NCBI GenBank assembly: GCA_038841535.1
Contig: JAWBTQ010000003.1
Span: forward strand, 1-64,000
Origin: Sulfolobales archaeon
GTDB taxonomy: Archaea > Thermoproteota > Thermoprotei_A > Sulfolobales > NBVN01
Direction: 5' to 3'
DNA length: 64,000 nt
In this document: in pieces, positions 11,213-55,542 of the stretch
Layout: each line of letters begins with the position of its first letter
How positions within the stretch are numbered: the stretch's first letter is position 1
Notes under the pieces: generated by a model
Databases searched by the model: none
Told to the model about the DNA's origin: nothing
The model's input: only the letters and a program-made list of their open reading frames with translations
Made by a program: the position numbers and the translations under genes

Positions 11213-11416
11213 CTAGCTACTAGGTGCGGCTTTTCTAGGCACCGATGAGGGAGGTACTACGGCCGGTACCGGCAGACCCGACTCTTTTCTCTTCCTAACC
11301 CAGTATTCTCTCCTGTTCCTCTGCCTTGGAGGTAGGTTCCTTCTAGGTTTTGCGGGTATTTTTGGTGTTGCGTTTCTCACCTTACCAGCTTTCGTCATGG
11401 ACCCGTGTGTAGGCGT
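11213..11416 (-). CDS. rps30e: 30S ribosomal protein eS30 (probable ACG start)
   Basis: (M)[18 protein letters not shown]; conserved N-terminus begins at ACG 7 nt after GGTGA. Confidence 0.9.
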
Positions 11417-11478
11417 TTTGCTTTCACCTGGTTCTATCTATACCAACAAGCTTATAAAGCTAACAAACTTCTCATTGG

Positions 11479-11676
11479 CTATAGGTTAGCCCGCTTTGCG
11501 CTTTCGACACCTTCGGGCTTGTGCTCTCCCCTAGCAATTACTCTGTACTTAACATACTTGTCAATAGGTGAGAACCTGGGTGGACTGGCAACTACCGTCG
11601 TACTTCCGCATTTAGGACACTGTTCTTTCAGAGTGTAGTTTCCGCACTTGATGCACTTTCTTATAAGAAACCTAAC
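11479..11676 (-). CDS. nop10: H/ACA RNP protein Nop10 (no canonical start; GTT inferred); absent from the ORF track
   Basis: RFLIRKCIKCGNYTLKEQCPKCG..PPRFSPIDKYVKYR, immediately downstream of aIF2alpha as in the conserved operon. Confidence 0.92.
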   Translation of the reverse strand, partial: VRFLIRKCIKCGNYTLKEQCPKCGSTTVVASPPRFSPIDKYVKYRVIARGEHKPEGVESAKRANL

Positions 11677-12469
11677 TGAGCTTCACCCTCTCGAAGCTGA
11701 AGCTTACGTTAAACTTTTTACTCAAGTTCTCAGCTCTCTTTACGAGCTCTGCTAGCTTACTCTCGAGAACCTTGTAATCTGTTCCTACTAGCTCGATTCT
11801 GTATCTTGGGGCACCCTCAGAGTACACTCTAACTCTAACATCGTCTCCAACATCTTCATCTAGCAACTTTAGTAACTCCTTAATTCTGTAGATGCCGTCC
11901 GACTCGTAGGTAGTTAAAACGAGTCTACAATCGATCCTGACGTGCTTGGGTTTAATATGCTTAGGTATTTCCTCCATTAACCCCGAGACCCATTCGTCCG
12001 GGACTCCAGCACTCCTAAGAACGCTGTCTCCCATAACTGAGGCGTCTTCAAACGCGGATAGAACGTCTCCGTAGAACTCCTCTAGCTTCCACCAAACTCT
12101 GGAGTATGCCTCTTCGAGACTCTTGCCGAGCTTCTTAGCGACTATCTCTAAGATCTTCTCGGCTCTGTTAACGCGCTTCCACTCTCTCAGCTTCCTCCTA
12201 CGCTCTACCTCAGCCACTCTCTTTAAAGATACGTCTACTTGGTTCTTCTTTCTATCTACTCTTATGACTTTTACTACAACCTTCTGGCCCTCCCTAATAA
12301 CCTCACGTATGTTCTTAACCCACTTACTGCTAACTTCGTTCCATGGGAGGTAGGCCTCGAGGTTACCGTATTCGTCTAGCTTAACGTACGCTCCTAAGTC
12401 AAATACTTTGTCTACTGTTGCTACGCAGAGCTCGTTGATAGATGGTAGAATCTCCTTTCTTTTAACCAA
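11672..12469 (-). CDS. eif2a: Translation initiation factor aIF2 alpha
   Basis: N-terminal S1 domain GAYVKLDEY..VDVSLKRV; GAPRYRI; synteny. Confidence 0.96.
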   Translation of the reverse strand: MVKRKEILPSINELCVATVDKVFDLGAYVKLDEYGNLEAYLPWNEVSSKWVKNIREVIREGQKVVVKVIRVDRKKNQVDVSLKRVAEVERRRKLREWKRVNRAEKILEIVAKKLGKSLEEAYSRVWWKLEEFYGDVLSAFEDASVMGDSVLRSAGVPDEWVSGLMEEIPKHIKPKHVRIDCRLVLTTYESDGIYRIKELLKLLDEDVGDDVRVRVYSEGAPRYRIELVGTDYKVLESKLAELVKRAENLSKKFNVSFSFERVKLS

Positions 12470-12475
12470 AGCCTT

Positions 12476-12673
12476 CTACCCCAGAACTCTTACAACCTCA
12501 CCAAGGACTTTAGCTTTACCACCTGTAGGTACTGCCAGCAGGGAACTACAAACAAAGCACTTAACTGGAAAGGTAGCATGATCAAAAACTATCTGCTCAT
12601 TACCGCAAGATGGACACTTAATCCTTAAGAACCTACTCTTCGGTATTGGGATCAGGATCTTTCTCTTCTTCAT
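12476..12673 (-). CDS. rps27e: 30S ribosomal protein eS27
   Basis: [26 protein letters not shown]. Confidence 0.97.
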
Positions 12674-12957
12674 CTAACCACCTCGACTAGGTCTACTTTC
12701 TTAAGCCTTATACCTCTTCTGTGCTGCATATAGCCGCACTTATTGCATTTCAACTTCAACACTATCTTCTTCGTTACCTTAGCGAACCTCTTTTGCTCCG
12801 GCTTACGCTTGCTTCCATAGCCTTCCTGCTTGCGCCTATATCTACGCTCACCCTCAGCTAGAGACCTCCTTCTGCCGTGTTTATATATCGACACACTGTG
12901 CTCTGTATGTGTCCCGCATTTCCGGCAGTACGTCCTAATTACCTTAGGTACTCTCAA
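12670..12957 (-). CDS. rpl44e: 50S ribosomal protein eL42 (L44e)
   Basis: [30 protein letters not shown]. Confidence 0.97.
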
Positions 12958-13173
12958 CGCCCACTCCTCTAACTATTAGCTAAAGCGATTTAAAAGCTAT
13001 ATCGGGCTACACCACACTAATTAATGCCCAGCTCCTCCCACTCTATATAAAGAGAAATAATTGGACACAAAAACGAAACTCGACCTCTTTGAGAGTGCTC
13101 GAGTACTATAAATAGACATTAAAAAGAGTACGAGTTCAAAGCTTTTAAGCTGCAACACTGATAAAATAGGATA

Positions 13174-13263
13174 GGGCCCGTAGCTCAGCCAGGTGGAGCG
13201 GCGGACCAAGGGCCGAGGCTCTTAACCCGTAGGTCCCGGGTTCAAATCCCGGCGGGCCCGCCA
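13174..13263 (+). tRNA. tRNA-Lys(CTT) with 13-nt intron at position 30/31 (13205-13217)
   Basis: Removing ACCAAGGGCCGAG restores GCGGG CTCTTAA CCCGT; BHB motif present. Confidence 0.93.
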
Positions 13264-13503
13264 CAACAATAATTAAAGTGGCAACCCCCGACTAGGTCTA
13301 GTTACCTATCACCAAAACACCTACTTTAGAAACTTTACGAGAACCCTAACTTCCATGACAGCATTCAGATAGAACAAAATCTCTTGAACTAGAGAAATCG
13401 AGCCTAGTAGCAGGTGAGGACGCGAGATCTAGTTAATTTTGTTTATTAGGGAATGCCGCAGCACATCGAAGAGCTCCTCGCACCATTAAACTTCATGTGT
13501 GAC

Positions 13504-14439
13504 CTATAATGTAGCTCTACTCTGACTAGGGAGCAATAACCACTCTATCTTTGATTCGTCGAGGTTTACTATAGAATTACCTGAGGTATTCGTAGCAATA
13601 GCTCCCTCTATACTCAGTAGTGTCCCCACCGGTAGCTCTACAAACCTCAGTCGGTGTGTGAGCAAGTGTAAGTCCTTATTGACTAGAGTTGAAGCTCTAA
13701 CTACATCAGCTCTTAGAATCGCCGGAGTTCTATAGTCGCTCTCAGTTATTTTAACAACTAGTTCAGCTCTTCTAAAGTCTACGTAAGGACCAAGAAACCC
13801 CCTTACTCTACTACAATCTACTATCCTTATGGTTACCTTTCTTCTCTTATATACACCCTGAAGATATCTTTTCGTGATCAGCTCGGCGTGTTTCTTTAAT
13901 TCGAGAGACTCGGATACTTCCATTGCCTCGCGGATTGCCTCATTGAAGTCTAAGTGTTTAAGCACTCCTAGGGAATACAAAGAGGATATCCTACTATAAG
14001 CGTCTGGACTATTTAAGCAATGTATATCTACGTCTGACTCAGCACTACTGTAACCACCTAAGTGTGACCCAGCTATTCCACAACTTAACCCCAGCAAGTC
14101 GAATGTTTGGATAATCTGTCGCAGGAAAGCGTTACCGCAACTCCGACCATCAATTGACCACCTGCGTACCTCAAGCACATCTCCTACTGGGACTATGGGG
14201 ACATCTCTACCTATCTCTGGAAGATTCCTAATGTAGTGAAGGTAATACCTTTTAATCATCTCCTCCACCTCCATAAGTCGTTTGAGCTTTTTACCATCTA
14301 CAACTCTAGGTATAGCGACGAAACCCTCATGAGGATGTACGCAACCTTTTACTACCCACACACTTCCGTCTCTGTGTCTCACTATATCGCCTTCAGTTAG
14401 TTGCTTTATGTAACTGTTTCGGTTTTCATATCTGCTCAT
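13504..14439 (-). CDS. Predicted nucleotidyltransferase (archaeal uncharacterised family); start now inside a mini-element
   Basis: EGD..VKGCVHP; GIAGS..SDVDI Pol-beta-like motif. Confidence 0.75.
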   Translation of the reverse strand: MSRYENRNSYIKQLTEGDIVRHRDGSVWVVKGCVHPHEGFVAIPRVVDGKKLKRLMEVEEMIKRYYLHYIRNLPEIGRDVPIVPVGDVLEVRRWSIDGRSCGNAFLRQIIQTFDLLGLSCGIAGSHLGGYSSAESDVDIHCLNSPDAYSRISSLYSLGVLKHLDFNEAIREAMEVSESLELKKHAELITKRYLQGVYKRRKVTIRIVDCSRVRGFLGPYVDFRRAELVVKITESDYRTPAILRADVVRASTLVNKDLHLLTHRLRFVELPVGTLLSIEGAIATNTSGNSIVNLDESKIEWLLLPSQSRATL

Positions 14440-14683
14440 GTCTGTCGATATTGATCGAAACATTTATAAGCACCTCATGGTGATATGCGTGGATGTACAT
14501 AGATGAGGGGTCGAGAGCCACTCGATGATCTAGATGACGGCTCTCCCCGAGATACTCAAGATGTGGGGTGCTAGGGGTCGCCCCGAACGCCCCCGAGCCC
14601 GATGAGGCCCCGAGCGGAATGCGGGAGAAAGAGGGTGAGGCAATGAAGTCAACCGATATAAACCTATACAAGAGCTTAACCCC
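14421..14683 (+). mobile_element. Type-1 tnpB-derived mini-element
   Basis: Follows CTGTTTC; GGTTTTCATATCT...AGAGCTTAACCCC; omega block close to 189-318. Confidence 0.85.
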
Positions 14684-14724
14684 CTACCATGGCTTCATAA
14701 CCTAAATGGCGGTGTCATGGGTGT

Positions 14725-14778
14725 TCAGCCAAGGATAGCCGGCTCACTTTCATCGCTTCGGCTCTTCTTCATCATCAT
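14725..14778 (-). ncRNA. C/D-box sRNA candidate targeting the 23S peptidyl-transferase region
   Basis: ATGATGA...CTGA with TATA upstream; guides GAAGAGCCGA and TATCCTTGG are antisense to this window's 23S. Confidence 0.7.
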
Positions 14779-14832
14779 AAAGCTATCGTGTTTAAAGGTT
14801 AAAAATTGGTGCTACCAGGAGGCTGTTAAGTA

Positions 14833-16044
14833 TTATACACCTAGAGACTCTACAAACTCTTTAATTCTCTCCGCGCCTTCCTCGATTAGCTTAGCGTCTA
14901 CCGCAAAACTGAGCCTGATGAAGTCCTTGCCAGCCTTGTCTGGGAACGCTGTTCCAGGTAAAGTGACTACGTACTTAGCATAGAGTAGCTTCTCAACGAA
15001 CTCTTCGACAGCAAGTCCAGCTGAGTCGAGGACCTTTCTAATTCTTGGGAAGATGTAAAACGCTCCAGTGCTTGGCCATACTTCAAGACCTTTTATTTCA
15101 CTTAGCTTCCTAGCGATGACGTCTCTACGGTACTGGAAGAGCCTAATCATCTCTTTAACGGGTTCCCACGGTCCTCTCAGTGCCGCTATTGCTGCTCTCT
15201 GAGCAAACGATACGGGGCAAGACCAAATGTTTACAGCTAACCTAGTTAGTTTTGTTGCTACTTCCTCTCTAATGACTAGATAGCCCAACCTCCACCCAGT
15301 CATCGAGAACGTCTTAGAGAAGCCATTTATGTAAAGTAGGTGGTCCCTCCAGTCACCGAAAGTTAGAAACGACCTAAACGGCTGGTTATCGTAGATAAAG
15401 TTATCGTATATCTCGTCTACCAGTAGCATTATATTGTGCTCTCTAGCTATCTCAAATATTCTCTCAACCTGCGAAGGAGTGAAGAGCGCGCCCGTCGGAT
15501 TATGCGGGTTGTTGACTACGATGACCTTAGTTTTAGAAGTTATTGCTGTCTCTATGGCTTCAACGTCTAGAGCGAAGCCTCCAGTAGGTCCTAGCCACTT
15601 AAGCGGGATGAACACGGGTTTAGCCCCTATAAATCTGGCGACCTCGGGATATGCCGGATAGGAGGGCTCAGGTACTATTACTTCATCTCCAGGATTTAAG
15701 TACGCTGAGAGTGCGAGAAATATAGCACCCTTAGCACCCGGTGTTACTATCACCTCCGATGATTTGACGTCAGCTCTATATCTTTCGTTTAGATACCCAG
15801 TTATAACCTCTCTAAGCTCCCTAATTCCAGGAGTTTCGGTATACCCTGTAAACTTAGCATCAAGAGATTTCTTAGCTTCATCGATGATGTGTTGAAATGT
15901 GGGAATGTCTGGCTGTCCAACACCAAAGCTTATCACCTTATGACCCGCCCTCTCGAGTTCACGAGCTTTAGCTATGTACACGAAAGCTACCTCACCTAAA
16001 AGCTCGGCGATTATTGGCTTCATATTGAGAGTAGGTGCCTTCAT
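14833..16044 (-). CDS. aspC: Aspartate aminotransferase (class I PLP)
   Basis: NNPHNPTG, DEIYD, GFSKTFSMTGWRLG. Confidence 0.92.
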   Translation of the reverse strand: MKAPTLNMKPIIAELLGEVAFVYIAKARELERAGHKVISFGVGQPDIPTFQHIIDEAKKSLDAKFTGYTETPGIRELREVITGYLNERYRADVKSSEVIVTPGAKGAIFLALSAYLNPGDEVIVPEPSYPAYPEVARFIGAKPVFIPLKWLGPTGGFALDVEAIETAITSKTKVIVVNNPHNPTGALFTPSQVERIFEIAREHNIMLLVDEIYDNFIYDNQPFRSFLTFGDWRDHLLYINGFSKTFSMTGWRLGYLVIREEVATKLTRLAVNIWSCPVSFAQRAAIAALRGPWEPVKEMIRLFQYRRDVIARKLSEIKGLEVWPSTGAFYIFPRIRKVLDSAGLAVEEFVEKLLYAKYVVTLPGTAFPDKAGKDFIRLSFAVDAKLIEEGAERIKEFVESLGV

Positions 16045-16145
16045 AGACTACTCCCATAATAGATTACCTATGCTATAAAAATCCATGTCTAGTACATATT
16101 TAGAGTAAGGAACTGTTTAGCCATCTAAATGCTTATTTCTCAGAC

Positions 16146-17180
16146 ATGAGTATCTACTTGGAGGACCTAATGAAGCCCAAAGTCTTTATAACTAGGGAGC
16201 TATTCGATGATATAATCGAAAGAATATCGCAGTATTACGATGTTAACGTATGGGATAGATATCAGCAACCGCCTTATGAAGTACTCCTCCGCCAAGTCCG
16301 AGAAGTAGACGCATTAGTATCCTTACTTACTGACAGAATTGACTGCAGTCTCCTTCAGAACGCACCTAAACTTCGTATAGTTGCTCAATACGCTGTGGGC
16401 TTCGATAATATCGACGTAGAATGCGCTACTAAGCTTGGAATATACATAACTAACACACCAGGAGTTTTAACAGAGTCAACAGCGGAACTCGCTTGGGCTC
16501 TAATACTTGCTGTTAGTAGGAGAATAGTGGAGTCTGACGTATTCGTGAGATGGGGTGAGTGGTATAGAATTAAAACAGCGTGGCATCCTAAGATGATGCT
16601 GGGAGTAGAGCTAAAAGGCAAGATTTTGGGAGTTATAGGACTTGGTAGAATAGGTAGGCGTGTTGCTGAAATAGGATCTCGAGGTTTTGGGATGAAAGTC
16701 ATCTACTATGATGTCATTAGAAACTACGAAGTCGAGAGAGAGCTTGGGATAGAGTTCAGGGAGCTGCCTGAGTTACTTAAGGAAGCCGATGTCGTATCTA
16801 TACATGTACCCCTCACCCAAGAAACCAGACACTTGATAGACGAGAAAACACTCAAACTTATGAAGAGATCGGCCATTCTAGTAAACACCTCAAGAGGTGC
16901 TGTAGTAGACACAGAAGCTCTCGTAAAGGCTCTGAGAGATGGTTGGATAGCGGGTGCTGGGTTAGACGTTTTCGAGGAGGAACCATTAAACCCGAATCAC
17001 CCTCTAACAGCTCTAAAGAACGTAGTGATAGTGCCTCACATAGGAAGTGCTACGTATGAGGCAAGACACGCTATGGCAGAAGCAGTCGCCGATAACTTGA
17101 TATCCTTCTACAAGGGGCAGGTCCCACCCAACCTAGTTAACGCAAAAGTAGTTAATCAGCGAGCACCCGGTTTTAAGTAG
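16146..17180 (+). CDS. gyaR: Glyoxylate reductase / D-2-hydroxyacid dehydrogenase
   Basis: GLGRIG, NTSRGAVVD, LDVFEEEP, PHIGSAT. Confidence 0.92.
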   Translation: MSIYLEDLMKPKVFITRELFDDIIERISQYYDVNVWDRYQQPPYEVLLRQVREVDALVSLLTDRIDCSLLQNAPKLRIVAQYAVGFDNIDVECATKLGIYITNTPGVLTESTAELAWALILAVSRRIVESDVFVRWGEWYRIKTAWHPKMMLGVELKGKILGVIGLGRIGRRVAEIGSRGFGMKVIYYDVIRNYEVERELGIEFRELPELLKEADVVSIHVPLTQETRHLIDEKTLKLMKRSAILVNTSRGAVVDTEALVKALRDGWIAGAGLDVFEEEPLNPNHPLTALKNVVIVPHIGSATYEARHAMAEAVADNLISFYKGQVPPNLVNAKVVNQRAPGFK

Positions 17181-17586
17181 GCATTAACTTCACGGTCAAT
17201 TCCTCTAGCTCTTCTTTTTCTTTGAGAATCCACGCTCTCACTGAGCACTCTATCTCATCTATGATTATCCAAGGAATTGGCCATAATCTCATGCCCTCCA
17301 AGTCTAGCAAGCTCGGTAAAGTTCCTTGTTTGTGGGTATGCACTAAAGCGACAACTTCATATCCTCCGAGCTCAGAATACTTAAAAGCCTCAATTATAGC
17401 TGCTGGGTCTAGATGAAACTTGTTGCTCTCTTTAGACAAATTCTCGCCTATGATGATGTCTTCAACAATTACTCGCCCGCCCTCATTAAAGCCTACGCCT
17501 AAACCAACAACCTCCTTTCCGTAGTGTTCTGCTAAACTACACGCAATATCTACAAGGTGTTTAGGTAGTACTATCAGAAAGGTAAT
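17173..17586 (-). CDS. JAMM/MPN+ metalloprotease; true start upstream of the ORF-track TTG and non-canonical
   Basis: GKEVVG (catalytic Glu) ... HTHKQGTLPSLLD; ATT 17586 or CTG 17577 candidate starts. Confidence 0.75.
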   Translation of the reverse strand: MTFLIVLPKHLVDIACSLAEHYGKEVVGLGVGFNEGGRVIVEDIIIGENLSKESNKFHLDPAAIIEAFKYSELGGYEVVALVHTHKQGTLPSLLDLEGMRLWPIPWIIIDEIECSVRAWILKEKEELEELTVKLMPT

Positions 17587-17590
17587 GACC

Positions 17591-17845
17591 CTACCCCACT
17601 CTAGAGAGAGCTCTTCTAATGTCGAGAGGTAGATCTTTATACTCCACTACAACTTCTTTTACGTCCTTAAATGACGAATGCTCCAGCAGATCCCACTCCT
17701 CTTCTTTGTCTCCTACTGAGTACCTACCTCTAAGCGAGCTGTGCACAATTACAAACCTTCCACGAGGGGTAGATACGACCTCGCAAACTCCTTCCTTTCC
17801 TCCTTTTCTGAACCTGTAAACAGCTTCTCTACTGGTTTTGAGCAT
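17591..17845 (-). CDS. Hypothetical protein
   Basis: ATG with GGAGGGG SD and TATA upstream. Confidence 0.65.
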   Translation of the reverse strand: MLKTSREAVYRFRKGGKEGVCEVVSTPRGRFVIVHSSLRGRYSVGDKEEEWDLLEHSSFKDVKEVVVEYKDLPLDIRRALSRVG

Positions 17846-17909
17846 ACTGACCCCCTCCTACGTTAGTGCTTAAAATAAAAGCGTTGAGATAGAGACTAGC
17901 GTGAAGCCG

Positions 17910-17960
17910 ATGATGTGTACCCGGCAAGTAGGTAGCGATGCCTTATCAGTGTTACTCTGA
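17910..17960 (+). ncRNA. C/D-box sRNA candidate
   Basis: ATGATGT...GCGATGC...CTGA; guide TACCCGGCAAG (11 nt) antisense to 23S near 26348-26358. Confidence 0.5.
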
Positions 17961-18308
17961 GGTCGAAGCAGTGCTGTGTTCGTGTTCTCTGCAATACTCT
18001 CTGATGAAAGCTGAGATCTCCTCGTATAGCTCCTCCGGGTTCACCGAGCACTCTATTTCCCTGACTAAGTAAGAAATAGATCTAAGCACTCCAAGAACTT
18101 CTGCGCCCTCTATAACCACTTTTTTCCCGGAAGGCAAAGCTAATTCCCCAGAATAGCACACTCTACCTTCGCCTACTGTAACACTTTTATCGCAACTAAA
18201 GCAGTACGGTAAGCCGGGAATGTCTCCTACAGCGTGCGGCTCTTCAGAGCAGACTACAACTACTTTAAGGAAGTCTCGCACTACGTGTTCCCTAAAGTGC
18301 GCACCCAC
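17952..18308 (-). CDS. Hypothetical protein downstream of stomatin
   Basis: ORF co-oriented with the nfeD-stomatin pair. Confidence 0.55.
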   Translation of the reverse strand: MGAHFREHVVRDFLKVVVVCSEEPHAVGDIPGLPYCFSCDKSVTVGEGRVCYSGELALPSGKKVVIEGAEVLGVLRSISYLVREIECSVNPEELYEEISAFIREYCREHEHSTASTSE

Positions 18309-28609: not shown

Positions 28610-30107
<1,498 letters not shown>

Positions 30108-30347: not shown

Positions 30348-30491
30348 TATACGCTGAGAGGCGTCAAGTATGCCTCTTAACTTTTTGTATTATTTGTGGA
30401 CGCCTTTTTGTATAACTTAACCCCTCTTGATAAGCTACTAATATAGCTTTACCAAGCTCATAGCGGGGCGGGTAGACTGAAGTGCCTCAAG

Positions 30492-31016
30492 ATGCCCGAG
30501 AATCTTAGGGAATCCCTCGCGCGCGGGTTTCTCGGCATAAGGATTTGTGGTAGTGAGGAGTATGTTACTAGGCACTTACTGAAATTACTGAAGAGCTGCC
30601 CTGAAGCAATCGTCGTTGGAGACTTTGCTTGTCTAAAGCTATTGAATTCTGGTTACATACCTAGAGTGTGCGTGATTGATGGAGTAACAAGAAGAACTCA
30701 AGCTCAGTCAATTGCGCTTAGATACTTTAGTAAGGTAGTTAGGGCCCTCAACCCACGGTCTCATGTATGTCAAGGTGCTGTTGAGAAGATACTGGAGGCA
30801 ATACAAGAAGCTAAGCAAAAGGAGAACGTATTGATACTAGTCGATGGTGAAGAAGACCTCCTGGCTCTTCCAGCCATAGCCGAAGCCCCAATTGGTTGGT
30901 GCGTTATCTACGGACTACCCGGGTGCGGAATTGAGTTAATTGTTGTAGACCAATATACCGCAGAGTCCGCAAGAAAGATACTCGACCTTTTCGAAGAAGT
31001 AGAACTGCAACTATAA
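30492..31016 (+). CDS. GTP-dependent dephospho-CoA kinase (DUF359)
   Basis: VGD, IDGVTRR, NP, VDGEEDLLALP, YGLPG. Confidence 0.88.
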   Translation: MPENLRESLARGFLGIRICGSEEYVTRHLLKLLKSCPEAIVVGDFACLKLLNSGYIPRVCVIDGVTRRTQAQSIALRYFSKVVRALNPRSHVCQGAVEKILEAIQEAKQKENVLILVDGEEDLLALPAIAEAPIGWCVIYGLPGCGIELIVVDQYTAESARKILDLFEEVELQL

Positions 31017-47085: not shown

Positions 47086-47669
47086 TCTTCAACTACCTGA
47101 GACATTATTAAGTCGTATTGCTCTTTAATGATTAAATTCCTCTTTAGTGCCTCACTAGCTAAACTAGCTATATCACAAAGAGATACCAGCTTTAACCCTA
47201 AGTTTTTCACGAGCTTTCCACCGCCCTGTTGCCTATTAAAGGCTACAGCAGCTAGCACCGGGATGGCTCCAGAGCTTGTGAGGGCTTCATACGCTCTCCT
47301 TATAGTGCCTCCAGTAGTTAAGACATCGTCAACTATAGCGACTCTCAAATTTCTTACATCTCCCTCAACCTCTCTCCCTAAACCATGGTTTTTCGGCTCA
47401 CTTCTAACGAAAGTTACCGGCATATCGAATAGGGCTCCCACGTACGAGGCTATTAGTGCTCCAGCTACAGCAACTCCAACGAGTGCGTCAACGTTTTCTT
47501 TTCGCACCATTAACCCTATTTCGTATGCTGCTCTCTTAATGTAGCTTGGTACCATAGTGGCTTCCTTAAAGTTTATGTAGTAATAGGACTCTATACCCGA
47601 CGACAACTTGAACTTACCGAACTTCACTAACCCTAATTTCACAGCCTCTAGACAGAGCTCGTGCGGCAA
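47082..47669 (-). CDS. pyrE: Orotate phosphoribosyltransferase
   Basis: FKLSSG, IVDDVLTTGG. Confidence 0.95.
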   Translation of the reverse strand: MPHELCLEAVKLGLVKFGKFKLSSGIESYYYINFKEATMVPSYIKRAAYEIGLMVRKENVDALVGVAVAGALIASYVGALFDMPVTFVRSEPKNHGLGREVEGDVRNLRVAIVDDVLTTGGTIRRAYEALTSSGAIPVLAAVAFNRQQGGGKLVKNLGLKLVSLCDIASLASEALKRNLIIKEQYDLIMSQVVED

Positions 47670-48334
47670 GATCTCACCTCTTTCTCTACTTCGCTTATAA
47701 CTTCTCTGGCAACTCTGAGTGGATCGGGAGCTCTAACTACAGACCTACCAACTATTTCGTAGTTTGCCCCATGACATATGGCGGTCCCGTATTTAGCTCC
47801 TTGAGCACCGACACCAGGTGAAAGAATCTTAGTAGAGCTTCCGAGTGCGGCTCTTGCTTCACTTACGAGGCGCGGTCTAGTTGCTGGAACGACGACGCCC
47901 CAAACATTGAGCTCTCTAGCTATCTTCAGGAACTCACTAAAGTGTTTATCGTAAAACTCCTTAGATCCTTCGTGGCTCATCGAAATTAGGAGAGCTACGT
48001 TAACACCCAGCTTCGACGCCTTATCTACTAAGGCTTCTAAACCACCTCGAACACCTACAAATGCGTGAACTATAGCTATACTATAACCTAGTTCCGCTAT
48101 TGCTTCAATGGAGCTGCTCATAACATCCCCAATATCAGCAAGCTTAAAGTCGGCAACTCCCAGAACGTCGGCTCTCCGAGCTAGCTTAGCTATGTCTCTT
48201 AGTAGCTCTGTTCCTTTCTTGAGAAGTAAGGGTAGACCTACTTTAACTCCATCAAACATCGAAATTAGTCTACCTAAACACTCTAGTTCTCTACATGCGT
48301 CAGGTAGACCATCTAGGGCTAGTACTACTCCCGT
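47648..48334 (-). CDS. pyrF: OMP decarboxylase; N-terminus extends upstream of the ORF-track ATG (ACG 48334 or GTT 48343)
   Basis: VVLALD upstream in frame, DFKLADIG, SPGVGAQG, IVGR. Confidence 0.9.
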   Translation of the reverse strand, partial: TGVVLALDGLPDACRELECLGRLISMFDGVKVGLPLLLKKGTELLRDIAKLARRADVLGVADFKLADIGDVMSSSIEAIAELGYSIAIVHAFVGVRGGLEALVDKASKLGVNVALLISMSHEGSKEFYDKHFSEFLKIARELNVWGVVVPATRPRLVSEARAALGSSTKILSPGVGAQGAKYGTAICHGANYEIVGRSVVRAPDPLRVAREVISEVEKEVRSCRTSSV

Positions 48335-48584
48335 ATGCCCAACCCATTTATACTGTTGAGCTTAAAAGCACGTAGAACTTAAAACCATATCGAGTTGAAC
48401 CTCGCTGAGCAATAGAGACTTCCTACAACCACTGTTTAATGCTTTAATACTCATAGTGTATTAAGGGCACTAGCTAGAGTCTGTCCATGCGATACATTAG
48501 TAGACCCCTTCGCTAAATAGCATAATAATTCTGATACTGTGGACCTTACTAAGCAATTTAAATCTATCCACAACAGTATTAGGG

Positions 48585-48661: not shown

Positions 48662-48857
48662 CTTTTCTAGCCCGAATATGACACCTAGAGCTAAAACTGG
48701 GTAGCGTTACGAGAAAATATCGTGATGAACTAAGGTTAGCATACTTAACTACTCAACCTAGAAAGCTCTTAACTCCTCCCTAAAGTAGCGTCTAGGGCTA
48801 CCGTCTCTCAGCCCCACATAGAGTTGTGGTTTTAATACTTTACGTAGTGAGTATTAC

Positions 48858-50495
48858 TTGATGTATATATCTGAAGTGATAACTGCGGTCGCTATAGTGG
48901 TTCTAAACATAGTTATTGGAGTATCCTTTAGTGCCCCTGGTTTAATCACGACCCACTACTTACCTCTGGTACCGTTTATAGTCGCAGTGTGCGGTTTTCT
49001 TGCTAGTAAGTTGAGGAACGCTCTGATAGTCCTCATCGAGGCTTTACTCATTGTAGTAGTCGTAGCGATGTACTCTCGCTTTGAGCTCCTTGTATCGTAC
49101 CTGTTTTCGTATGTTCTCGGCTTCGCTATAGGCTTATTAAGAAGAAAGAGTCCTCTAGATTTCAGGTTGTGGACTCCAGCTAACTATTACCACACCGTGT
49201 TCTCGCTAGGGTTCTCTCTAGTAGGTGCCGGTATTGTCGGACTATCAGGGATCCCTCTCGAAACTCCTGCAGGCGCCCTCATCAGGAGGGGGGCATCAGC
49301 CGAGACCCTAGTTTTTACTATCGCAGTCTACGTAGTTCAAGCTTACGTATCCTCAGCAGCACCTAGTGCTAGCTTGATGGTGTTGGCTTTACTATCGCTG
49401 CTTTCACCATATACTCTTCCGATATTAGCCGTTCTCCCTTATTTAGGTGGTGCTACCCGAGTATATCTCAAAAACCGCTTCTTGAAGGTGGGTAAGGTAG
49501 TTGAAGTCGTCAAGGGAGTTAGAGCTAGAGAGCTTCTAATCCCATTTGAGAGAGGACTTAATAGGAATATTGTTATCGTTGGTGCTACTGGCACAGGCAA
49601 ATCCACTCTAGCGAAGCATTTAGTTAACCAGGTTAGGGCTCTGGGTATACCTGTCGTCGTCTTCGACGTGCACGGCGAGCACTGCAGTGAATGTGAAGAA
49701 TGTGAGTGTGTTGATGCTACTGAGCTATCTGTAGACATATTCCGAATATACGAAGAGGATCCTAAGACTCGGGCAGAGTTTGTAGCTGACGCTATATCGG
49801 AAATATACTCTCTTGGAAACCTTCAGAGGATAGCTCTCTCTAAGGCTTTATCGCATGTGTATGGAATCGCTCATGGAGGTTTAGGATTCGACTACCTTCT
49901 CGAATACCTTTGGAGGGCTTCTTACGGAGAGGTAGACCTCGGAGTCCCTCAAACCGTTGTTCGCTCTCTCATACCCTATTTAGAGAAATTGAAGAGCGTC
50001 TTTAAAACCAGTGGTAAAAGCATAGTAGAATTCGTGAATACTGTAACAATAGTCGACTACTCAAAATTGAGTAGCGGAGTAGCTACGATAATATCTGAGA
50101 TAGCTACCGACGAACTCTACCATACATTCAAAGACCTTAATAGAGAGTTCGTTCTAGTTGTGGATGAGGCACACAGATTCTTGAGAAAGGGAAGGGCTCT
50201 ATCGAGGTTATTCAGAGAAGGTAGAAAGTACGGTATATCATCGATCCTGATAACACAGGATGTTATCAGCATCCCGAGAGAACTACTCCTAAATACTGCG
50301 GCACTAATCTCGTTTTCTGTACCTGAGGTCTCTACAGCACGATACATAGCAAAAATAATCTCTCCTGGTGACACAAATCTTTACGAAAAAATCCTCAGCA
50401 AGCTTACATCCCTACCTCAATTCTACGCTCTTACATCAATACCCGGTATGGGGTCTTACATCATTGAGACTCAAAAACCGTACTTTACGCAATAG
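48858..50495 (+). CDS. Membrane-anchored HerA/VirB4/FtsK-like ATPase (DUF87)
   Basis: Multi-TM N-terminus, GATGTGKS, FDVHGE, VDEAHRF, REGRKYG, ITQ. Confidence 0.85.
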   Translation: MMYISEVITAVAIVVLNIVIGVSFSAPGLITTHYLPLVPFIVAVCGFLASKLRNALIVLIEALLIVVVVAMYSRFELLVSYLFSYVLGFAIGLLRRKSPLDFRLWTPANYYHTVFSLGFSLVGAGIVGLSGIPLETPAGALIRRGASAETLVFTIAVYVVQAYVSSAAPSASLMVLALLSLLSPYTLPILAVLPYLGGATRVYLKNRFLKVGKVVEVVKGVRARELLIPFERGLNRNIVIVGATGTGKSTLAKHLVNQVRALGIPVVVFDVHGEHCSECEECECVDATELSVDIFRIYEEDPKTRAEFVADAISEIYSLGNLQRIALSKALSHVYGIAHGGLGFDYLLEYLWRASYGEVDLGVPQTVVRSLIPYLEKLKSVFKTSGKSIVEFVNTVTIVDYSKLSSGVATIISEIATDELYHTFKDLNREFVLVVDEAHRFLRKGRALSRLFREGRKYGISSILITQDVISIPRELLLNTAALISFSVPEVSTARYIAKIISPGDTNLYEKILSKLTSLPQFYALTSIPGMGSYIIETQKPYFTQ

Positions 50496-50522
50496 AGAAA
50501 ATAATAGCACTCCTCTCGTTTC

Positions 50523-50781
50523 CAGTTTTGACCCTTACTTCTAGAGCCCAAGATGCTGAGGTAAGCTAGAATACGGCAACAAAACACCTCACCGCCTAAG
50601 ATGAAGGTCTGTAGGACATAGTGACAGGTATAAACTCCTCTTAAAGAGTACAGGATGTGGGGTCTCAGGGTACCTTAGAACACCTACGAGGACGACGTCG
50701 ACCCAAGTTCGATGTAAGAGGAGGGATGAGGCGATAACCGATAACGTTAAGTAATATAAGTCATCATGAGAGTGGACTCCC
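50523..50781 (+). mobile_element. Degenerate mini-element / omega-RNA-like remnant
   Basis: Follows CGTTTC; GATGTGGGGTCTCAGGG..GACCCAAG..GATGAGGC aligns with the 23.3-kb copy. Confidence 0.55.
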
Positions 50782-50854
50782 GCGAACTAGAGCCGCTAAC
50801 GTAGGAGCACCTAATGCTTTTAAATCTCTGTGCTATCTTGTTGTGGTGCGTCTC

Positions 50855-51142
50855 TTGCCAAAAAAGCGTGAAAGTAGAGGTAGAAGGAAGGGTAGTAAGG
50901 GATCTGTTGAGACTGTACAGTGTGACCAGTGCGGTAGGCTCATACCAGAGGATAAAGCCATATGTGTAACTAAGTGGTACTCTCCAGTAGATCCTCAACT
51001 AGCTGATGAACTAGAGAAGAAGGGATCGATCATAGCTAAGTACCCGGTTACGAGGTGCTACTGTGTTAGCTGCGCAGTGTTCATGGGGATAGTTAAGGTT
51101 AGACCTGAGGAGGAAAGAAAGAGGAGAGATATCCTCAAGTAG
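50855..51142 (+). CDS. rps26e: 30S ribosomal protein eS26
   Basis: PKKRESRGRRKG..CDQCGR..PEDKA..YCVSCA. Confidence 0.97.
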   Translation: MPKKRESRGRRKGSKGSVETVQCDQCGRLIPEDKAICVTKWYSPVDPQLADELEKKGSIIAKYPVTRCYCVSCAVFMGIVKVRPEEERKRRDILK

Positions 51143-51171
51143 TAATAAAACCAGGACACGTCATAATTTAA

Positions 51172-51220
51172 GTGATGAAAGCTGGTATTTCTGATGTGTG
51201 ATGTGTGATACCAGAACTGA
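51172..51220 (+). ncRNA. Double-guide C/D-box sRNA targeting 16S helix 18
   Basis: GTGATGA-12nt-CTGA-GTGATGT-12nt-CTGA; guides GCTGGTATT and TGATACCAGA antisense to adjacent 16S sites (29614-29643). Confidence 0.85.
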
Positions 51221-51239
51221 TTTGTGAAGTACTCTACCT

Positions 51240-52345
51240 ATCGTGGTCAATATCGAGAACCTCATTAACGCAGAACTTGTTTACTGCAGTCCGCTTGCCT
51301 TCACCAAAGAGCATCTATCTTTCACGATAGTAGCACGAGAGATGCGTAAGGGGAGGTACTACAAAGCGTTGAAGCTAAAGTAGGGGTTGTTGGCGAGAAC
51401 CATAGCCAGCTACTATAAGATTTAATACTGATTAGACGCGCTCTCTAAAAGTCTTTTGACTCTCTGCAGGAGCTCGATAAATTACCGAAGAAAAGACGGC
51501 CCCGCCAGCTACTCTACCCAGATCTCAAGAAGTGCGGCTTCAGAGCACGTGTAGCTAGAAACGTGTGCGATACAGACCTTCGTTAGTGAAGTTAGCAAAG
51601 AGAAACACAGCTCAAAGCCTATTATCGAGAGGACGCACACTCCGATGGGTGTGCTAGCACTAGACATCAACCTCAAGCAAATAACGGTATTGATGGGTGT
51701 GATGTGAGAAGGTAAATGACGAGGTTCATGAACGTGCTCAGCAAGAAGGCTAGAGCAAAAGAAATAGAAGGAAGTACATGGAGAGATGGAGATGCAACAA
51801 GAGGGTTCTGAGCAGAGTTAGGGCTCCACATAGAAAAGCAAGAAACATCATACCAGGCTTGTCTGAGAAATTCACTAAGGAGTTAGTACTAAAGGCAAGA
51901 AAACGTAGATACGCAATCGCAGTAGAGGACTTAACCTATTGAGGAACATTATCAACACGAGTTAATCTCGTTGCCTGAAAGCTACCGTTATTCGCATACA
52001 GGAAAACAATTGAAACAATTGTTTGCAAAGCAGCAGAGTATAACATACCGGTAGTGCCCTGGACCCGAGGAATGCACCACCCACTTGCTCTAATAGCAGG
52101 TTACTCTGAAATACGCTAGCAGGTTATCTACCTGAAAATGCGGCTTCGTAGGGGATAGGAATGTTGTTGGAGTCGTGAACGTGTGGCTAAGGGCTCTCTA
52201 CGAGTATGTAGGGGGCTGGGGTCTCTTACGAGAGCTCCGCTGTGAAAAATGAAACAAGACAGAGTGAGGAAACCACACATGAAGAGATTACCGTAACCGC
52301 AGTTATTCAGAAGTAATAAAAGTGTCAACATGACCTAAACCCTAG
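51240..52345 (+). pseudogene. tnpB: Decayed tnpB element; limits approximate
   Basis: Fragments VLALDINL, YAIAVEDL, KAAEYNIPV, DPRN, KCGFVGDRNVVGVVN in shifting frames. Confidence 0.8.
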
Positions 52346-52397
52346 AGTAAAAGCTAGAGTTACAGCTGAGTGCTTTGCCCTCTAAAGAGACGGGAGA

Positions 52398-52688
52398 TCA
52401 GCCCGACTTCTTTTTCTTTCTTACCGCTTTCCTTTCTTTAACAACTTTTCTTTCTCTCTTTTTTCTCTCTTTTGCTGTCGATGTACTACTTAGCTTACCC
52501 ATCTCCTCGATGTATCTAGCTGGCTCACTAGAGCGGGATGCTTCGTAGAGTAGGTCGCTAATCTTAATCATAATCTCAAGTCCTCCAACATCGACGACGA
52601 AATCGGGTGGTGCTTCTTCTAGTGCCTCTGGCGCCTCTTCCACTTCCTCCGCTCTTTCCTCTATATCCGCTTTTTCCTCCTCACTCAC
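52398..52688 (-). CDS. RNA polymerase subunit Rpo13-like protein
   Basis: Acidic N-terminus, short helical core, Lys/Arg tail. Confidence 0.55.
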   Translation of the reverse strand: MSEEEKADIEERAEEVEEAPEALEEAPPDFVVDVGGLEIMIKISDLLYEASRSSEPARYIEEMGKLSSTSTAKERKKRERKVVKERKAVRKKKKSG

Positions 52689-52824
52689 ACTGATGCCCCT
52701 AATCTTTTAGAAAGGAGTTTAAGAATTTAAAGGATAGCGTGCGTGGAGTGACTGATGGTTTTACTGTGCAATAGCTAATAAATTCTTGAAGAAGCTACTT
52801 CGTGGAGTAAGCAAGGTATGAAAT

Positions 52825-53355
52825 ATGAGTATTAAGCTGTTTGTTTTAAGGTGTGGGTCCGATGACCCTCGGAAGTCTACAGCCCTTAAGCTAGTTAGAA
52901 AAGGAATTGCCCAAAAAGCTCAGATCAGTGAGCTACCGAAATGCTGTGTGTTGCTTACGGTATATTCAAGTAAGGTGCTCTCACCGCAAGATAGAGAGCT
53001 AGTAAGGAAATGTGGCATAGCCGTCATAGACTCCTCTTGGAGAAGCGATATGGGCATTATCGAAAACATCAGCAAGAACTGGGCGGGACCTAAGAGAGTT
53101 CTACCCGCACTCGTCGCTGGCAACCCCATAAATTACGGACACGTCTCATTACTCAGCTCGGCAGAAGCTCTCGCCGCAGCTCTATACATAACCGGGTTTC
53201 TAGAAGAGTCATTAAACGTGCTCTCTCAGTTTAAGTGGGGTCAGACATTCTTGTACCTAAACCGAGAGTTACTAGAGTCGTACAGAAAAGCTTCTACCGT
53301 CGAAGAGCTCCTGGACGTGCAAGCAGAGTTTCTAAAATCAAGAAACTTAGTATAA
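52825..53355 (+). CDS. tsr3: 16S rRNA aminocarboxypropyltransferase
   Basis: DDPRKSTALKL, DSSW, LPALVAGNPINYG, LSSAEA, FKWG. Confidence 0.95.
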   Translation: MSIKLFVLRCGSDDPRKSTALKLVRKGIAQKAQISELPKCCVLLTVYSSKVLSPQDRELVRKCGIAVIDSSWRSDMGIIENISKNWAGPKRVLPALVAGNPINYGHVSLLSSAEALAAALYITGFLEESLNVLSQFKWGQTFLYLNRELLESYRKASTVEELLDVQAEFLKSRNLV

Positions 53356-53512
53356 AATACCTGCCACATTAAACTCCACCTTTCCACGAATGCAAATACT
53401 CTCACTAATATCTAAGCTCAACCAGGGGACGGCATTGAGATATTCGATTCTAGAGCCAGATCGGTGCATTATTAAACAAATTTGTTTAATAGTAGACAGA
53501 TGTTGTCTACCA

Positions 53513-54295
53513 CTAGATTAACCTGAGGAAGACTATGTAACCTGTGTGTGCTATGTATAGCGTCCTGGGCCTCAAGGCTTTCGCTGTAGGCTCGAACTCC
53601 CTCATTAGAGTCTCGAAAACTCTCACGTCAACGCAAAAGCTCGAAGACTCCACATATTCCAGTAGCCTAATCACTTGGTTAACTGTAGGGAGGAAATTTA
53701 TTATGGGAGCCGATGGACGCACGGCGTTTCTAAGATGCTGGTAAACGTTCCATGGGTCCGGGATGTCTATAAAAACAGCGTCAAACTCTCTATCACCAGC
53801 TTTCTCGATTCCCAAGCGCGCATCAGCTACTTTTATGATGACGTTTTTGTCTAGACCAAGATTTGATAGGTTTCTCAAAGCAGCTTTTGCGTACTCCGGT
53901 CTCATTTCGTAACCTACAACTATGCCTCCAGGTCTAACTACGTTAGCTATGAAGGAGGTTAAGTAACCCGTTCCAACACCTATCTCAAGTACGTAGCTAC
54001 CGGGACCTATACCCGAGAGGAGTATCATGAGTCCCGCATCTTTCGGGTATATGACTTGCGTAACTCTTCTAAATTTTGATACAAGATCGAAATGTAGGGG
54101 TTTGAGAATGTAGGCCTTAATTCCGGTACTTAATGGAACCTGAGACCCGTAGCGAAGACCTATGACATTCCCCATGTCTAGACAACCTTTATCACTCTCA
54201 AACCTGGTTTCTCGAGAAACCTTAACGACTTTATGTCTCCTACTATCTACATAGACTAGTACATAGTCTCCTTCACTGATAACATCAGAGCTCAC
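53513..54295 (-). CDS. trmI: tRNA m1A58 methyltransferase
   Basis: TQVIYPKD, EIGVGTG, DIPDPW, HTGY. Confidence 0.95.
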   Translation of the reverse strand: MSSDVISEGDYVLVYVDSRRHKVVKVSRETRFESDKGCLDMGNVIGLRYGSQVPLSTGIKAYILKPLHFDLVSKFRRVTQVIYPKDAGLMILLSGIGPGSYVLEIGVGTGYLTSFIANVVRPGGIVVGYEMRPEYAKAALRNLSNLGLDKNVIIKVADARLGIEKAGDREFDAVFIDIPDPWNVYQHLRNAVRPSAPIINFLPTVNQVIRLLEYVESSSFCVDVRVFETLMREFEPTAKALRPRTLYIAHTGYIVFLRLI

Positions 54296-54484
54296 CTCTG
54301 ACACCAGCGACAGAACCGTATGATACAATAAATGCATGTTCGTAGATCTCTTACATCTACCCTAGGGATAGGGATTGAGCAGGAACACTGCTGTTACCAC
54401 ATAACTCTTGGTCGCATCGGTGTGGAGGAAGTATTGTAAATAATTTCGAATTCCTCCTTACTTTATGCCCCCACCATTCACATC

Positions 54485-55153
54485 TTAAGTTATCGGTGGT
54501 ACTTTCTCTAGCTTATACCAAGTGATCTCGTCACGCTTCAGTAGGGACTCTAAGTAACTTGAGTCTATATCTCCCTCAATTAGTAGGTAGTAAAAGCCGT
54601 CTACTACCGAGCTTTCAGCGATTTTGATAACTTCATACTTTTCAGTTATCGCCTTAATTATTTCTGACGCTAGATCTTTGAAGTAAGTAGTGAAGTACAC
54701 TGCTAGCTTAGGGGTGTTCTTCGGCACCATATAGACCCACCTAACTACCTCTTTTAGGGCTTTAAATTCGTTGGAAAACACTTTCTCGATCTCGTCACCA
54801 CTTAGTCCTCTAGATATCTCCCCCATGTTTTCGTAGACCCACGGACACATTAGGGATGTTGATACCTCAAGTGATGTTAGATTTACAAGCATCGGGAACA
54901 TCCTACATGAAAGAGGTTTCTCCCTTTGTATTCGACACGCTCTGCCAGGGATATCGTAGAAAGGGCAGTAACCGTCTATGATAAACCGATAAAACCCTTG
55001 ACCCAGGTTTTTAATGCTTAGCTTAAGATTCGTGAGCTCGCCTATCTTAACTAAGTACAGAACTTCGTGCCATAAGAGTATGGGGTTCTCTCTTTCTTCA
55101 GTAAAGAAGCAGCAGTGTATACACCTGTAACACTTAAATTCTATCGTCAACAC
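54485..55153 (-). CDS. YkgJ-family cysteine-cluster protein
   Basis: CYRCIHCC, CPF, C..KPLSCRMFP. Confidence 0.85.
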   Translation of the reverse strand: MLTIEFKCYRCIHCCFFTEERENPILLWHEVLYLVKIGELTNLKLSIKNLGQGFYRFIIDGYCPFYDIPGRACRIQREKPLSCRMFPMLVNLTSLEVSTSLMCPWVYENMGEISRGLSGDEIEKVFSNEFKALKEVVRWVYMVPKNTPKLAVYFTTYFKDLASEIIKAITEKYEVIKIAESSVVDGFYYLLIEGDIDSSYLESLLKRDEITWYKLEKVPPIT

Positions 55154-55542
55154 CTCAGATCTACGTATACGTAGTCACCGTCTTCAAGACCTAAGAGCCC
55201 CCTGAGGTACTTTGAGGATACGACTTCGAGAACGTTTGAACCGTGCCTAGATAGGTTCGGTCTTAACACAAGCACGTCGATAGAGCCTGTAGTGTCTGTA
55301 CTTATTTTACCTAGCCAATACTTAAACCCTCCGAATATGTTACTACCCGATATAACGCTCTTTATATATTGGGGTAAACAGTAAGTCTCTATCTCTGCAA
55401 CCGAGAGACTAGTTTCAATGTTTAACGTCCCTGGGTATGGCTCTTCACCTAGTATTTCTGTTAAAACTATATAGTACACGTGTTTGTTAACAAATATCCG
55501 CCCAAGACCTAACCCACTCATCACCTTACCTCTTAGCCGCAG
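55147..55542 (-). CDS. ribK: CTP-dependent riboflavin kinase (probable CTG start)
   Basis: LRLRGKVMSGLGLG..PYPGTLN..LEVVS..LR..L.DGD. Confidence 0.85.
   Translation of the reverse strand: MRLRGKVMSGLGLGRIFVNKHVYYIVLTEILGEEPYPGTLNIETSLSVAEIETYCLPQYIKSVISGSNIFGGFKYWLGKISTDTTGSIDVLVLRPNLSRHGSNVLEVVSSKYLRGLLGLEDGDYVYVDLRC

Follow-up and report, generated by a model that had tools for sequence, protein, structure and literature searches.

Non-canonical translation initiation is well known in bacteria and eukaryotes, and bacteria use it for a handful of genes per genome, often regulatory ones. For archaea, a 2020 review names AUG, GUG and UUG alone as start codons (PMC7531240), and the gene finder Prodigal considers only ATG, GTG and TTG (PMC2848648). 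Ribosome profiling of Haloferax volcanii placed about 30% of putative alternative initiation sites at near-cognate codons, which that study sets aside as possible false positives (PMC7261190); these sites suggest that archaeal ribosomes can sit on such codons. In the open full-text literature, we found no report of core genes starting at CTG, ACG or ATH (ATT, ATC or ATA) in Crenarchaeota/Thermoproteota. Here we analyze a stretch of 64,000 nucleotides (nt), called the window, that comprises positions 1-64000 of contig C3 (JAWBTQ010000003.1) in the draft genome of a Sulfolobales archaeon. An initial annotation named six sites at which conserved genes seemed to begin at odd codons: nop10, rps30e, a JAMM protease gene, pyrF, ribK and a DUF359 kinase gene. 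All six are present, and they are the candidate cases among 59 reciprocal-best pairs of open reading frames (ORFs) in the window, several of which are RNA-derived. Comparative sequence statistics indicate that genes in these organisms probably do start at near-cognate codons, mainly CUG, ACG and AUU/AUC/AUA, anchored by a Shine-Dalgarno (SD) sequence, and that this habit belongs to the order rather than to the genus.

The genome that carries the window (G000) is a draft of 1.56 Mb in 40 contigs and is 83.8% complete. Its nearest relatives are labeled as uncultured Sulfolobales, Desulfurococcales or Thermoproteota metagenome-assembled genomes (MAGs), and the sequencing runs that contain the stretch are hot-spring metagenomes. 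By order, we mean the GTDB-style order that holds MAGs labeled Desulfurococcales as well as Sulfolobales. We compared G000 with its sister G005 (whole, 1.64 Mb) and with G026, a complete genome from another family, of which 960 kb were used. A third family, f13, has genomes of 1.8-2.7 Mb and enters the argument through one genome, G030, and one codon, the ACG of its purQ gene.

The SD motif to be expected can be read from the 16S rRNA gene in the window.

28610..28625, minus strand: 3′ end of the 16S rRNA (anti-Shine-Dalgarno), ...GGATCACCTCC, complementary to GGTGA/GGAGGTGA

Given this tail, GGTGA/GGAGGTGA is the expected SD sequence, and canonical codons peak 4-7 nt after GGTG[AT]. For a genome-wide test, stop-to-stop ORFs of at least 50 codons were paired between genomes as reciprocal best BLASTP matches. 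The test set comprised genes that lack ATG, GTG and TTG throughout the interval that begins at the upstream stop and ends three codons beyond the alignment start. At each GGTG in this interval, we read the in-frame codon 5-7 nt behind GGTGN, counting CTG, ACG, ATT, ATC and ATA as near-cognate. The results, with two control spacings, were as follows.

G000 (versus G005): near-cognate codons in 13/37 at 5-7 nt (Fisher p 1.1e-5), 2/35 at 11-13 nt, 1/32 at 14-16 nt
G005: 22/38 at 5-7 nt (Fisher p 1.6e-13), 3/37 at 11-13 nt, 2/31 at 14-16 nt
G000 (versus G026): 4/8 at 5-7 nt (Fisher p 3.8e-3), 1/8 at 11-13 nt, 0/7 at 14-16 nt
G026: 10/16 at 5-7 nt (Fisher p 2.9e-7), 4/16 at 11-13 nt, 0/17 at 14-16 nt

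The background at the same spacing inside genes is 8.9-9.4% near-cognate codons. In G000 (versus G005), G005 and G026, the controls stay close to this value, at 0-8%, apart from the 4/16 of G026 at 11-13 nt. The enrichment thus goes beyond chance in this homology-filtered test, and the odd codons occupy the same distance from a GGTGA-type SD as canonical starts do, which bears out what had been claimed for the window. Enrichment is strongest for ACG and CTG, and AAG, AGG and GTT show none 5-7 nt behind GGTGN in the same test. Canonical codons at this spacing in 5′ regions number 282 in G000 (versus G005), 275 in G005 and 94 in G026, so that near-cognate codons make up about 4-10% of GGTG-led starts (13 versus 282, 22 versus 275 and 10 versus 94).

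Two other measures were given up. The raw count of genes with conservation upstream of the first canonical codon (88/1360 with at least 12 residues, versus G005) is inflated, because close genomes align through untranslated regions (UTRs) or overlapping genes, as with ribosomal protein L3, whose real GTG start lies inside the alignment, and because ORFs derived from rRNA and tRNA contaminate it. A tally of SD-anchored codons without homology support had a weak excess of CTG and ACG at spacings 4-6, was too noisy and was replaced.

The codons found at orthologous positions point in the same direction. For near-cognate candidates of G005, the aligned G000 codon is ATG, GTG or TTG in 11/21 cases and another near-cognate codon in 5/21 (p = 1e-10 for the two together against a codon share of 13.3%). 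Conversely, G000 candidates align with a canonical codon of G005 in 4/16 cases and with another near-cognate in 5/16. Codon usage would predict 4.3% canonical and 9.0% near-cognate codons. The expectation that the odd codons would be conserved in sister genomes is therefore borne out, and at orthologous positions they alternate with ATG, GTG and TTG.

Individual genes illustrate this alternation. The purQ start, followed in 11 genomes across the order, is ATT in G000, CTG in G005, ATA in G026 and ACG in G030, and it is GTG, TTG or ATG in six other genomes; in the near-cognate cases, a GGTGA or GGTGG motif lies 6 nt upstream. AspRS starts with CTG in five and TTG in four genomes of the genus, and with ATG in other genera. 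GGTGA or GGTGG occurs 7 nt upstream of this start in 8/9 genus genomes, and in G003 the TTG stands directly after GGTGAC plus 5 nt. MetRS and TFS have ACG behind AGGTG or GGTGA in both G000 and G005. Near-cognate candidates of G026, lying 6-7 nt behind GGTGA, include the SAH hydrolase AhcY (ATT), ribosomal protein S13 (CTG), a GTP cyclohydrolase-like protein (ACG), the purQ ATA just mentioned and others.

G026 loci L088-L127 and L219-L226, reverse-complement strand, e.g., 453420, 397785 and 67014: candidate near-cognate starts

The TtuA-like gene belongs, with purQ, JAMM and the AhcY gene of G026, to the cases with an ATT or ATC start. The odd codon coincides with position 1-2 of the Pfam profile in Nop10, TFS, PurQ, S30 and MetRS. 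The next canonical codon lies past the HIGH region in MetRS, past the first zinc-ribbon CxxC in TFS and 65 codons in for AspRS. Overall, nop10, JAMM, pyrF, MetRS, AspRS, TFS and purQ have no usable canonical codon ahead of conserved, needed residues. The aRF1 gene has no canonical codon for 74 codons, and its start could not be placed.

In the window itself, five genes had been described as having no in-frame canonical codon where the family N-terminus begins. In nop10, pyrF and JAMM, none occurs before conserved residues. In rps30e and ribK, the codon at the orthologous start is odd, and a canonical codon follows a few codons downstream. The reported distance of 6-7 nt between a GGTGA and the odd codon is present in all three genes for which it was given, with 6 nt in nop10, 7 nt in rps30e and 6 nt in ribK.

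11479..11676, minus strand: nop10 coding frame, counted from GTT 11676-11674, matching the Nop10p profile
11683..11687, minus strand: GGTGA Shine-Dalgarno of nop10, inside the 3′ end of the aIF2alpha gene, 6 nt before GTT and conserved in the genus

The stop-to-stop frame of nop10 (11479-11682, minus strand) contains zero ATG, GTG or TTG codons. At the junction, the native end of aIF2alpha is …GGGTGAAGCTCAGTTAGG…, and the GTT overlaps the aIF2alpha stop as GTTAG, which is a -5 overlap. Pfam Nop10p matches with 82.6 bits, with profile positions 2-49 on residues 2-49, such that the GTT aligns with the Met1 of the family. The N-terminal codon is GTT in 10/10 genomes of the genus, always in a GTTAG or GTTAA overlap. 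In ten other genera the aligned codon is ATG in 7/10 (five of them in a TAATG overlap), TTG in 2/10 and ACG in 1/10. A TTG stands one codon upstream of the GTT in three of the ten genus genomes and is absent from that position in the other seven. Across the genus, most changes in codons 2-4 are synonymous (R/F/L is kept in most genomes, while others have F/R at codon 4 or K/S), a pattern that conflicts with the public Nop10 of G000, annotated from an internal ATA. We place nop10 in the same class of genes that appear to lack a canonical start, with GTT as a candidate start codon and a single unexplained case.

11213..11416, minus strand: rps30e (eS30), counted from ACG 11416-11414; alternative ATG at 11398
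11424..11428, minus strand: GGTGA Shine-Dalgarno of rps30e, 7 nt before ACG

For rps30e, a TATA-like TTTATAA lies upstream at 11458-11452, and Pfam Ribosomal_S30 matches residues 3-41 on profile positions 2-41. Of ten genus genomes, four have ACG at the orthologous position, five have GTG and one has ATG; in other genera the codon is ATG or GTG. Among the ACG genomes, three have an in-frame TGA two codons before the ACG. In contigs of the metagenome runs X10 and X9, one base is missing at 11422. This strain polymorphism shortens the spacer from 7 to 6 nt and brings the TGA within the SD into frame, which is also the situation in sister genomes; at the ACG itself, these contigs show no change among the differences listed.

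17173..17586, minus strand: JAMM/Prok-JAB protease, counted from ATT 17586-17584; Pfam Prok-JAB on residues 13-110
17591..17845, minus strand: ORF of 84 amino acids (aa) without a Pfam family; its stop TAG (17593-17591) lies 4 nt before the JAMM ATT, and the JAMM frame is +1 to it

The JAMM ATT is 6 nt downstream of a GGGGT (17597-17593), and the first canonical codon, TTG 17439, lies 49 codons in, past the conserved E-x-x-G part of the domain. In the eight genus genomes in which the gene follows the 84-aa ORF, the aligned codon is ATT, ATA or ATC in seven and GTC in one. It stands 6 nt after GGGGT or GGTGA in 6/8, and G005 has ATA 3 nt after GAGGT. G003 and G004 have canonical codons. The 84-aa ORF lies directly upstream of the JAMM gene in the eight genus genomes and also in G012, from another genus. 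Its product does not end in Gly-Gly; it might act as a partner of the protease or serve as its substrate.

47648..48343, minus strand: pyrF (OMP decarboxylase), counted from GTT 48343; ACG at 48334-48332

Residues 6-214 of pyrF match Pfam OMPdecase positions 3-220. No canonical codon precedes the beta-1 strand 'VVLALD', and the first one is the ATG of 'SMFDG', 28 codons past the start of conservation. The 12-mer 'GTT GGG CAT ACG' is invariant in 9/9 genus genomes with the gene, G004 has an in-frame TGA immediately before the GTT, and TTTTAA occurs upstream at 48367-48362. It had been proposed that transcription-start geometry might place initiation in this lineage. The distance from the TATA-like box is 33 nt for ACG and 24 nt for GTT, compared with a peak of 35-39 nt in canonical genes without an SD, and it singles out neither codon. 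The sequence thus suggests that pyrF belongs to the class without a canonical start, with ACG, GTT and GTA all still candidates for the codon.

55147..55542, minus strand: ribK (CTP-dependent riboflavin kinase), counted from CTG 55542-55540; GGTGA at 55553-55549, 6 nt upstream
30477..31016, plus strand: DUF359 protein (archaeal dephospho-CoA kinase family), counted from CTG 30477; ATG 30492 five codons later

In ribK, an in-frame GTG (55524) and ATG (55521), which the initial annotation overlooked, follow 6-7 codons later. In the G005 ortholog, a GTG is aligned with CTG 55542, again with GGTGA 6 nt upstream. Similarly, G005 has a GTG aligned with CTG 30477 of the DUF359 gene, and the intervening K-C-L-K codons are kept.

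We considered four other explanations. In the best placed of these, which we nevertheless judge very unlikely, translation starts at the next downstream ATG, GTG or TTG, as annotated publicly, and the conservation upstream reflects promoters, UTRs or overlapping features. The publicly predicted TFS proteins do start downstream: 17/36 public matches, including most of the closest ones (at least 68% identical), are 81-87 aa long and lack PF02150. The N-termini examined among these short proteins are MVPQK or MIPQK in five cases and MLEPT in a sixth. The public TFS/RpoM proteins of the genus are thus visibly shortened and are missing the first CxxC. Most of the more distant public TFS proteins, of 92-100 aa, begin MRFCPKCG and carry the PF02150 domain. 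In addition, rps30e, ribK and DUF359 have a canonical codon within 5-7 codons, and the raw upstream-conservation count was inflated by DNA-level similarity of close genomes. However, no such codon exists in nop10, and a downstream start would strip catalytic or zinc-binding parts from MetRS, AspRS, TFS, pyrF, purQ and JAMM. In rps30e, the P-T-H-G-S codons after the ACG differ only synonymously among the four ACG genomes, whereas the spacer before the ACG is unconserved. A downstream start would also leave unexplained why near-cognate codons lie 5-7 nt after an SD and why sister genomes have ATG, GTG or TTG at exactly that position.

A public TFS/RpoM protein of a different genus, P0031, has 84 aa, is about 62% identical to the TFS of G000, begins MLEPTK and is without the first CxxC. 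This truncation suggests that the missed start extends beyond the genus of the window.

Another very unlikely explanation is a programmed +1 frameshift or stop-codon shift that fuses upstream and downstream proteins, namely aIF2alpha with Nop10 (AGT-TAG-G read as AGT-(T)-AGG) and the 84-aa ORF with JAMM (GGG-TAG-G). Both downstream frames are indeed +1 to the upstream stop, with AGG, AAG, AGA or AGC as the codon after the skipped T. The arrangement is kept in 10/10 genus genomes for nop10 and in 8/8 genomes with adjacent genes for JAMM, plus G012 of the other genus, and an SD-like G-rich stretch ahead of the stop resembles that of bacterial prfB. A +1 shift would, however, move the P-site tRNA from AGT or GGT to GTT, and from GGG, GCG or ACG to GGT or CGT, with no re-pairing in either case. 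Nop10 is presumably made alone where a TTG precedes the GTT (3/10 genus genomes) and where other genera have an ATG. For JAMM, an ATH codon stands near SD spacing in 7/8 genomes, and a frameshift would not require such a codon. Moreover, the explanation is inapplicable to rps30e, pyrF, MetRS and TFS, which have TATA-like boxes of their own, in-frame stops just upstream and no upstream ORF.

RNA editing could make the start canonical, either by C-to-U changes (ACG to AUG, CUG to UUG) or by A-to-I changes (AUA to AUI), and we consider this remote. In its favor, ACG and CTG are the most enriched codons, each becomes canonical after one C-to-U change, and ACG-to-AUG editing is routine in plant organelles. 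However, the ATT and ATC codons (purQ, JAMM, the TtuA-like gene and the AhcY gene of G026) and GTT are not mendable by either change, and an ATA start is not convertible by C-to-U. We know of no mRNA editing of a start-creating kind in archaea.

Errors of sequencing or assembly, or decaying pseudogenes, have a negligible chance of accounting for the pattern. The genome is indeed a draft in 40 contigs, but up to 10 genomes of the genus share the codons, and so do complete single-contig genomes from other families and metagenome contigs from three independent studies. The downstream frames are intact and conserved. The check for base-call errors that the initial annotation had called for thus gave a clear result. 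DNA contigs of three runs, one per study, that cover 11000-11698 have 0, 1 and (over 11000-13244) 17 differing letters; no difference falls on an odd codon among the contig differences listed, and 58 more stand outside that list.

Several points weigh against initiation at SD-anchored near-cognate codons. Its support consists of comparative sequence statistics, that is, of conservation and pattern, and the kin genomes are non-independent samples. The aligned sister codon is neither canonical nor near-cognate in 5/21 and 7/16 cases, from which it follows that the candidate lists hold false positives or misalignments. GTT is two mismatches away from AUG, and genome-wide it occurs at SD spacing in only 3/37, 0/38 and 0/16 cases; because it is not enriched, the general near-cognate rule does not cover nop10. 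The pyrF gene is without an SD, and its TATA-like spacing falls outside the canonical peak for both candidate codons, as noted. Canonical codons near the odd ones could serve instead in rps30e, whose ATG 11398 is 6 codons downstream of the ACG, and in ribK, whose Pfam domain starts at the downstream GTG. In the DUF359 gene, ATG 30492 seems as likely a start as CTG 30477. Finally, the assembled contigs of RNA run X13 leave 11380-11727 and 17318-17785 uncovered, so there is room in those stretches for ACG-to-AUG or CUG-to-UUG editing.

If near-cognate initiation does occur, the SD is likely to be central to it. A strong GGUGA-type SD duplex, 5-7 nt upstream, would hold the near-cognate codon in the P site, where the ordinary initiator tRNA(CAU) would read it with one anticodon mismatch tolerated. 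Start codons could then drift among ATG, GTG, TTG, CTG, ACG and ATH while the SD stays in place. We infer that the first residue is still methionine and that SD strength makes the mismatch tolerable. Reinitiation may help genes that are coupled to an upstream stop. The -5 overlap of nop10 and the 4-nt distance of JAMM from the preceding stop are of this kind, as is purQ, where the upstream stop lies inside the SD; the ribK CTG lies 11 nt before the stop of the endonuclease V gene, so that the genes overlap. By contrast, rps30e, pyrF, MetRS and TFS have their own TATA-like boxes and are uncoupled to an upstream gene.

It had been suggested that the start-fidelity machinery might be lost or divergent. 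No loss was seen in the two components covered, the initiator tRNA and aIF1, the latter as to its presence. The initiator tRNA (contig C6, intron-containing) looks normal: its anticodon is CAU, it has A1:U72, and its anticodon stem contains G:C pairs. The aIF1 (SUI1) protein is present in the genome with 78.8 bits. The suggestion of weak codon checking stands in part. Codon choice does appear relaxed where an SD places the start, but checking is not weak, since the set is CTG, ACG and ATH, and AAG, AGG and GTT are not enriched. The further idea that the phenomenon is special to this lineage does not hold, given that the same signal appears in G026, from another family (10/16), and that purQ has an ACG in the third family.

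In the 84%-complete genome, the initiator tRNA (67808-67899, minus strand, of C6, outside the window) was the only one found to have a CAU anticodon. ARAGORN did not detect an elongator tRNA-Met or a tRNA-Ile2 in G000, perhaps because these genes are missing from the assembly or contain introns of an unusual kind. The program also reported a tRNA with a CTA anticodon, but this is an artefact: the prediction runs round the ends of its contig and includes a 2-kb 'intron'. No suppressor tRNA is thus indicated.

Other features of the window concern RNA genes. At 14495-14660 (plus strand), there is a GC-rich stretch of about 170 nt with a TATA-like TTTATAA upstream (14464-14470) and several UGAUGA-like boxes. 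In four hot-spring runs, contig depths over this stretch sum to 182-353, as compared with about 15 nearby. A search of Rfam gave nothing at gathering score, with sR53, a C/D-box family, at E = 0.13, and the stretch is possibly an unnamed small RNA. An intron-containing tRNA without a clear anticodon by ARAGORN occupies 13174-13263 (plus strand). The X8 and X10 DNA contigs skip 31 nt of it (13193 to 13225), which suggests alleles or relatives without this tRNA intron in the same springs. A highly covered RNA-run contig, which differs from the rps27e/L44e stretch (12198-13020) at 52 of 823 nt and so has about 94% identity to it, joins position 13020 directly to 14545. This junction points to a related strain or species in the sample without the 1.5-kb stretch that holds the tRNA and a 319-aa ORF (13504-14463).

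A broader statement would be that eukaryote-like near-cognate codons (CUG, ACG and AUH, not AAG or AGG) routinely provide the sole start for about 1% or more of all genes, and for 4-10% of SD-led genes, in a whole order of hyperthermophilic archaea. These would include aminoacyl-tRNA synthetases, a ribosomal protein and an RNA polymerase/TFS subunit, as well as nop10, with a GUU in a -5 overlap thought impossible. On the sequence comparisons made here, we regard the case for and against this statement as evenly balanced. If it is true, the near-cognate hierarchy would be inherent in the e/aIF1-1A-2 machinery and older than eukaryotes, and start codons would drift to near-cognates wherever a strong SD buffers the loss. 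Gene finders would truncate or miss such genes, and the domain calls, completeness estimates and structure predictions of many hot-spring MAGs would inherit the errors. The order would also lend itself to studies of how start selection is divided between aIF1/aIF1A/aIF2 and SD pairing and of whether the eukaryotic hierarchy is ancestral. The order contains complete single-contig genomes, and Saccharolobus relatives may be among them; a cell-free translation system exists for Saccharolobus. Work on aIF1 fidelity has also been cited (PMC6237735).

Several known systems resemble part of this pattern. A 2023 paper on gene overlaps treats ATG, GTG and TTG starts and describes -5 overlaps as impossible except with ATT-like starts (PMC10666635). 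The termination-reinitiation coupling discussed in that text has a likeness in nop10, JAMM, ribK and purQ, which adjoin or overlap an upstream stop, and in the SD, which often contains the stop (GGTGA). By contrast, rps30e, pyrF, MetRS and TFS are uncoupled. The prfB type of +1 frameshifting shares with nop10 and JAMM the +1 frame, the stop at the junction and the G-rich SD-like stretch. However, there is no slippery P-site codon here, sister taxa have ordinary starts, and most of the cases are outside the reach of such a mechanism. In Haloferax volcanii, the near-cognate codons are alternative sites, not the orthologous starts of conserved genes, and this organism is mostly leaderless and belongs to a different phylum (PMC7261190).

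The bacterial starts (AUU in E. coli infC and pcnB; CTG, ATT, ATC and ATA in NCBI table 11) have in common with the candidates described here a near-cognate codon behind an SD and an initiator tRNA that would read it. ACG, which appears to be used here, is not on the table 11 start list. In contrast to bacteria, the share here is about 4-10% of GGTG-led starts, and aIF1/aIF1A/aIF2 take the place of IF3. Eukaryotic near-cognate initiation (CUG, GUG, UUG, ACG, AUA and AUU) has the same codon set. AAG and AGG are poor starts in eukaryotes, and they are not enriched here either. Unlike in eukaryotes, there is no scanning or Kozak context here, an SD would place the start, and the codons would be the main or sole starts of core genes, not of N-terminal extensions or upstream ORFs. 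Archaea and eukaryotes share e/aIF1, 1A and 2 (PMC6237735). On comparative statistics, what appears new relative to these bacterial and eukaryotic systems is the pattern in archaeal core genes.

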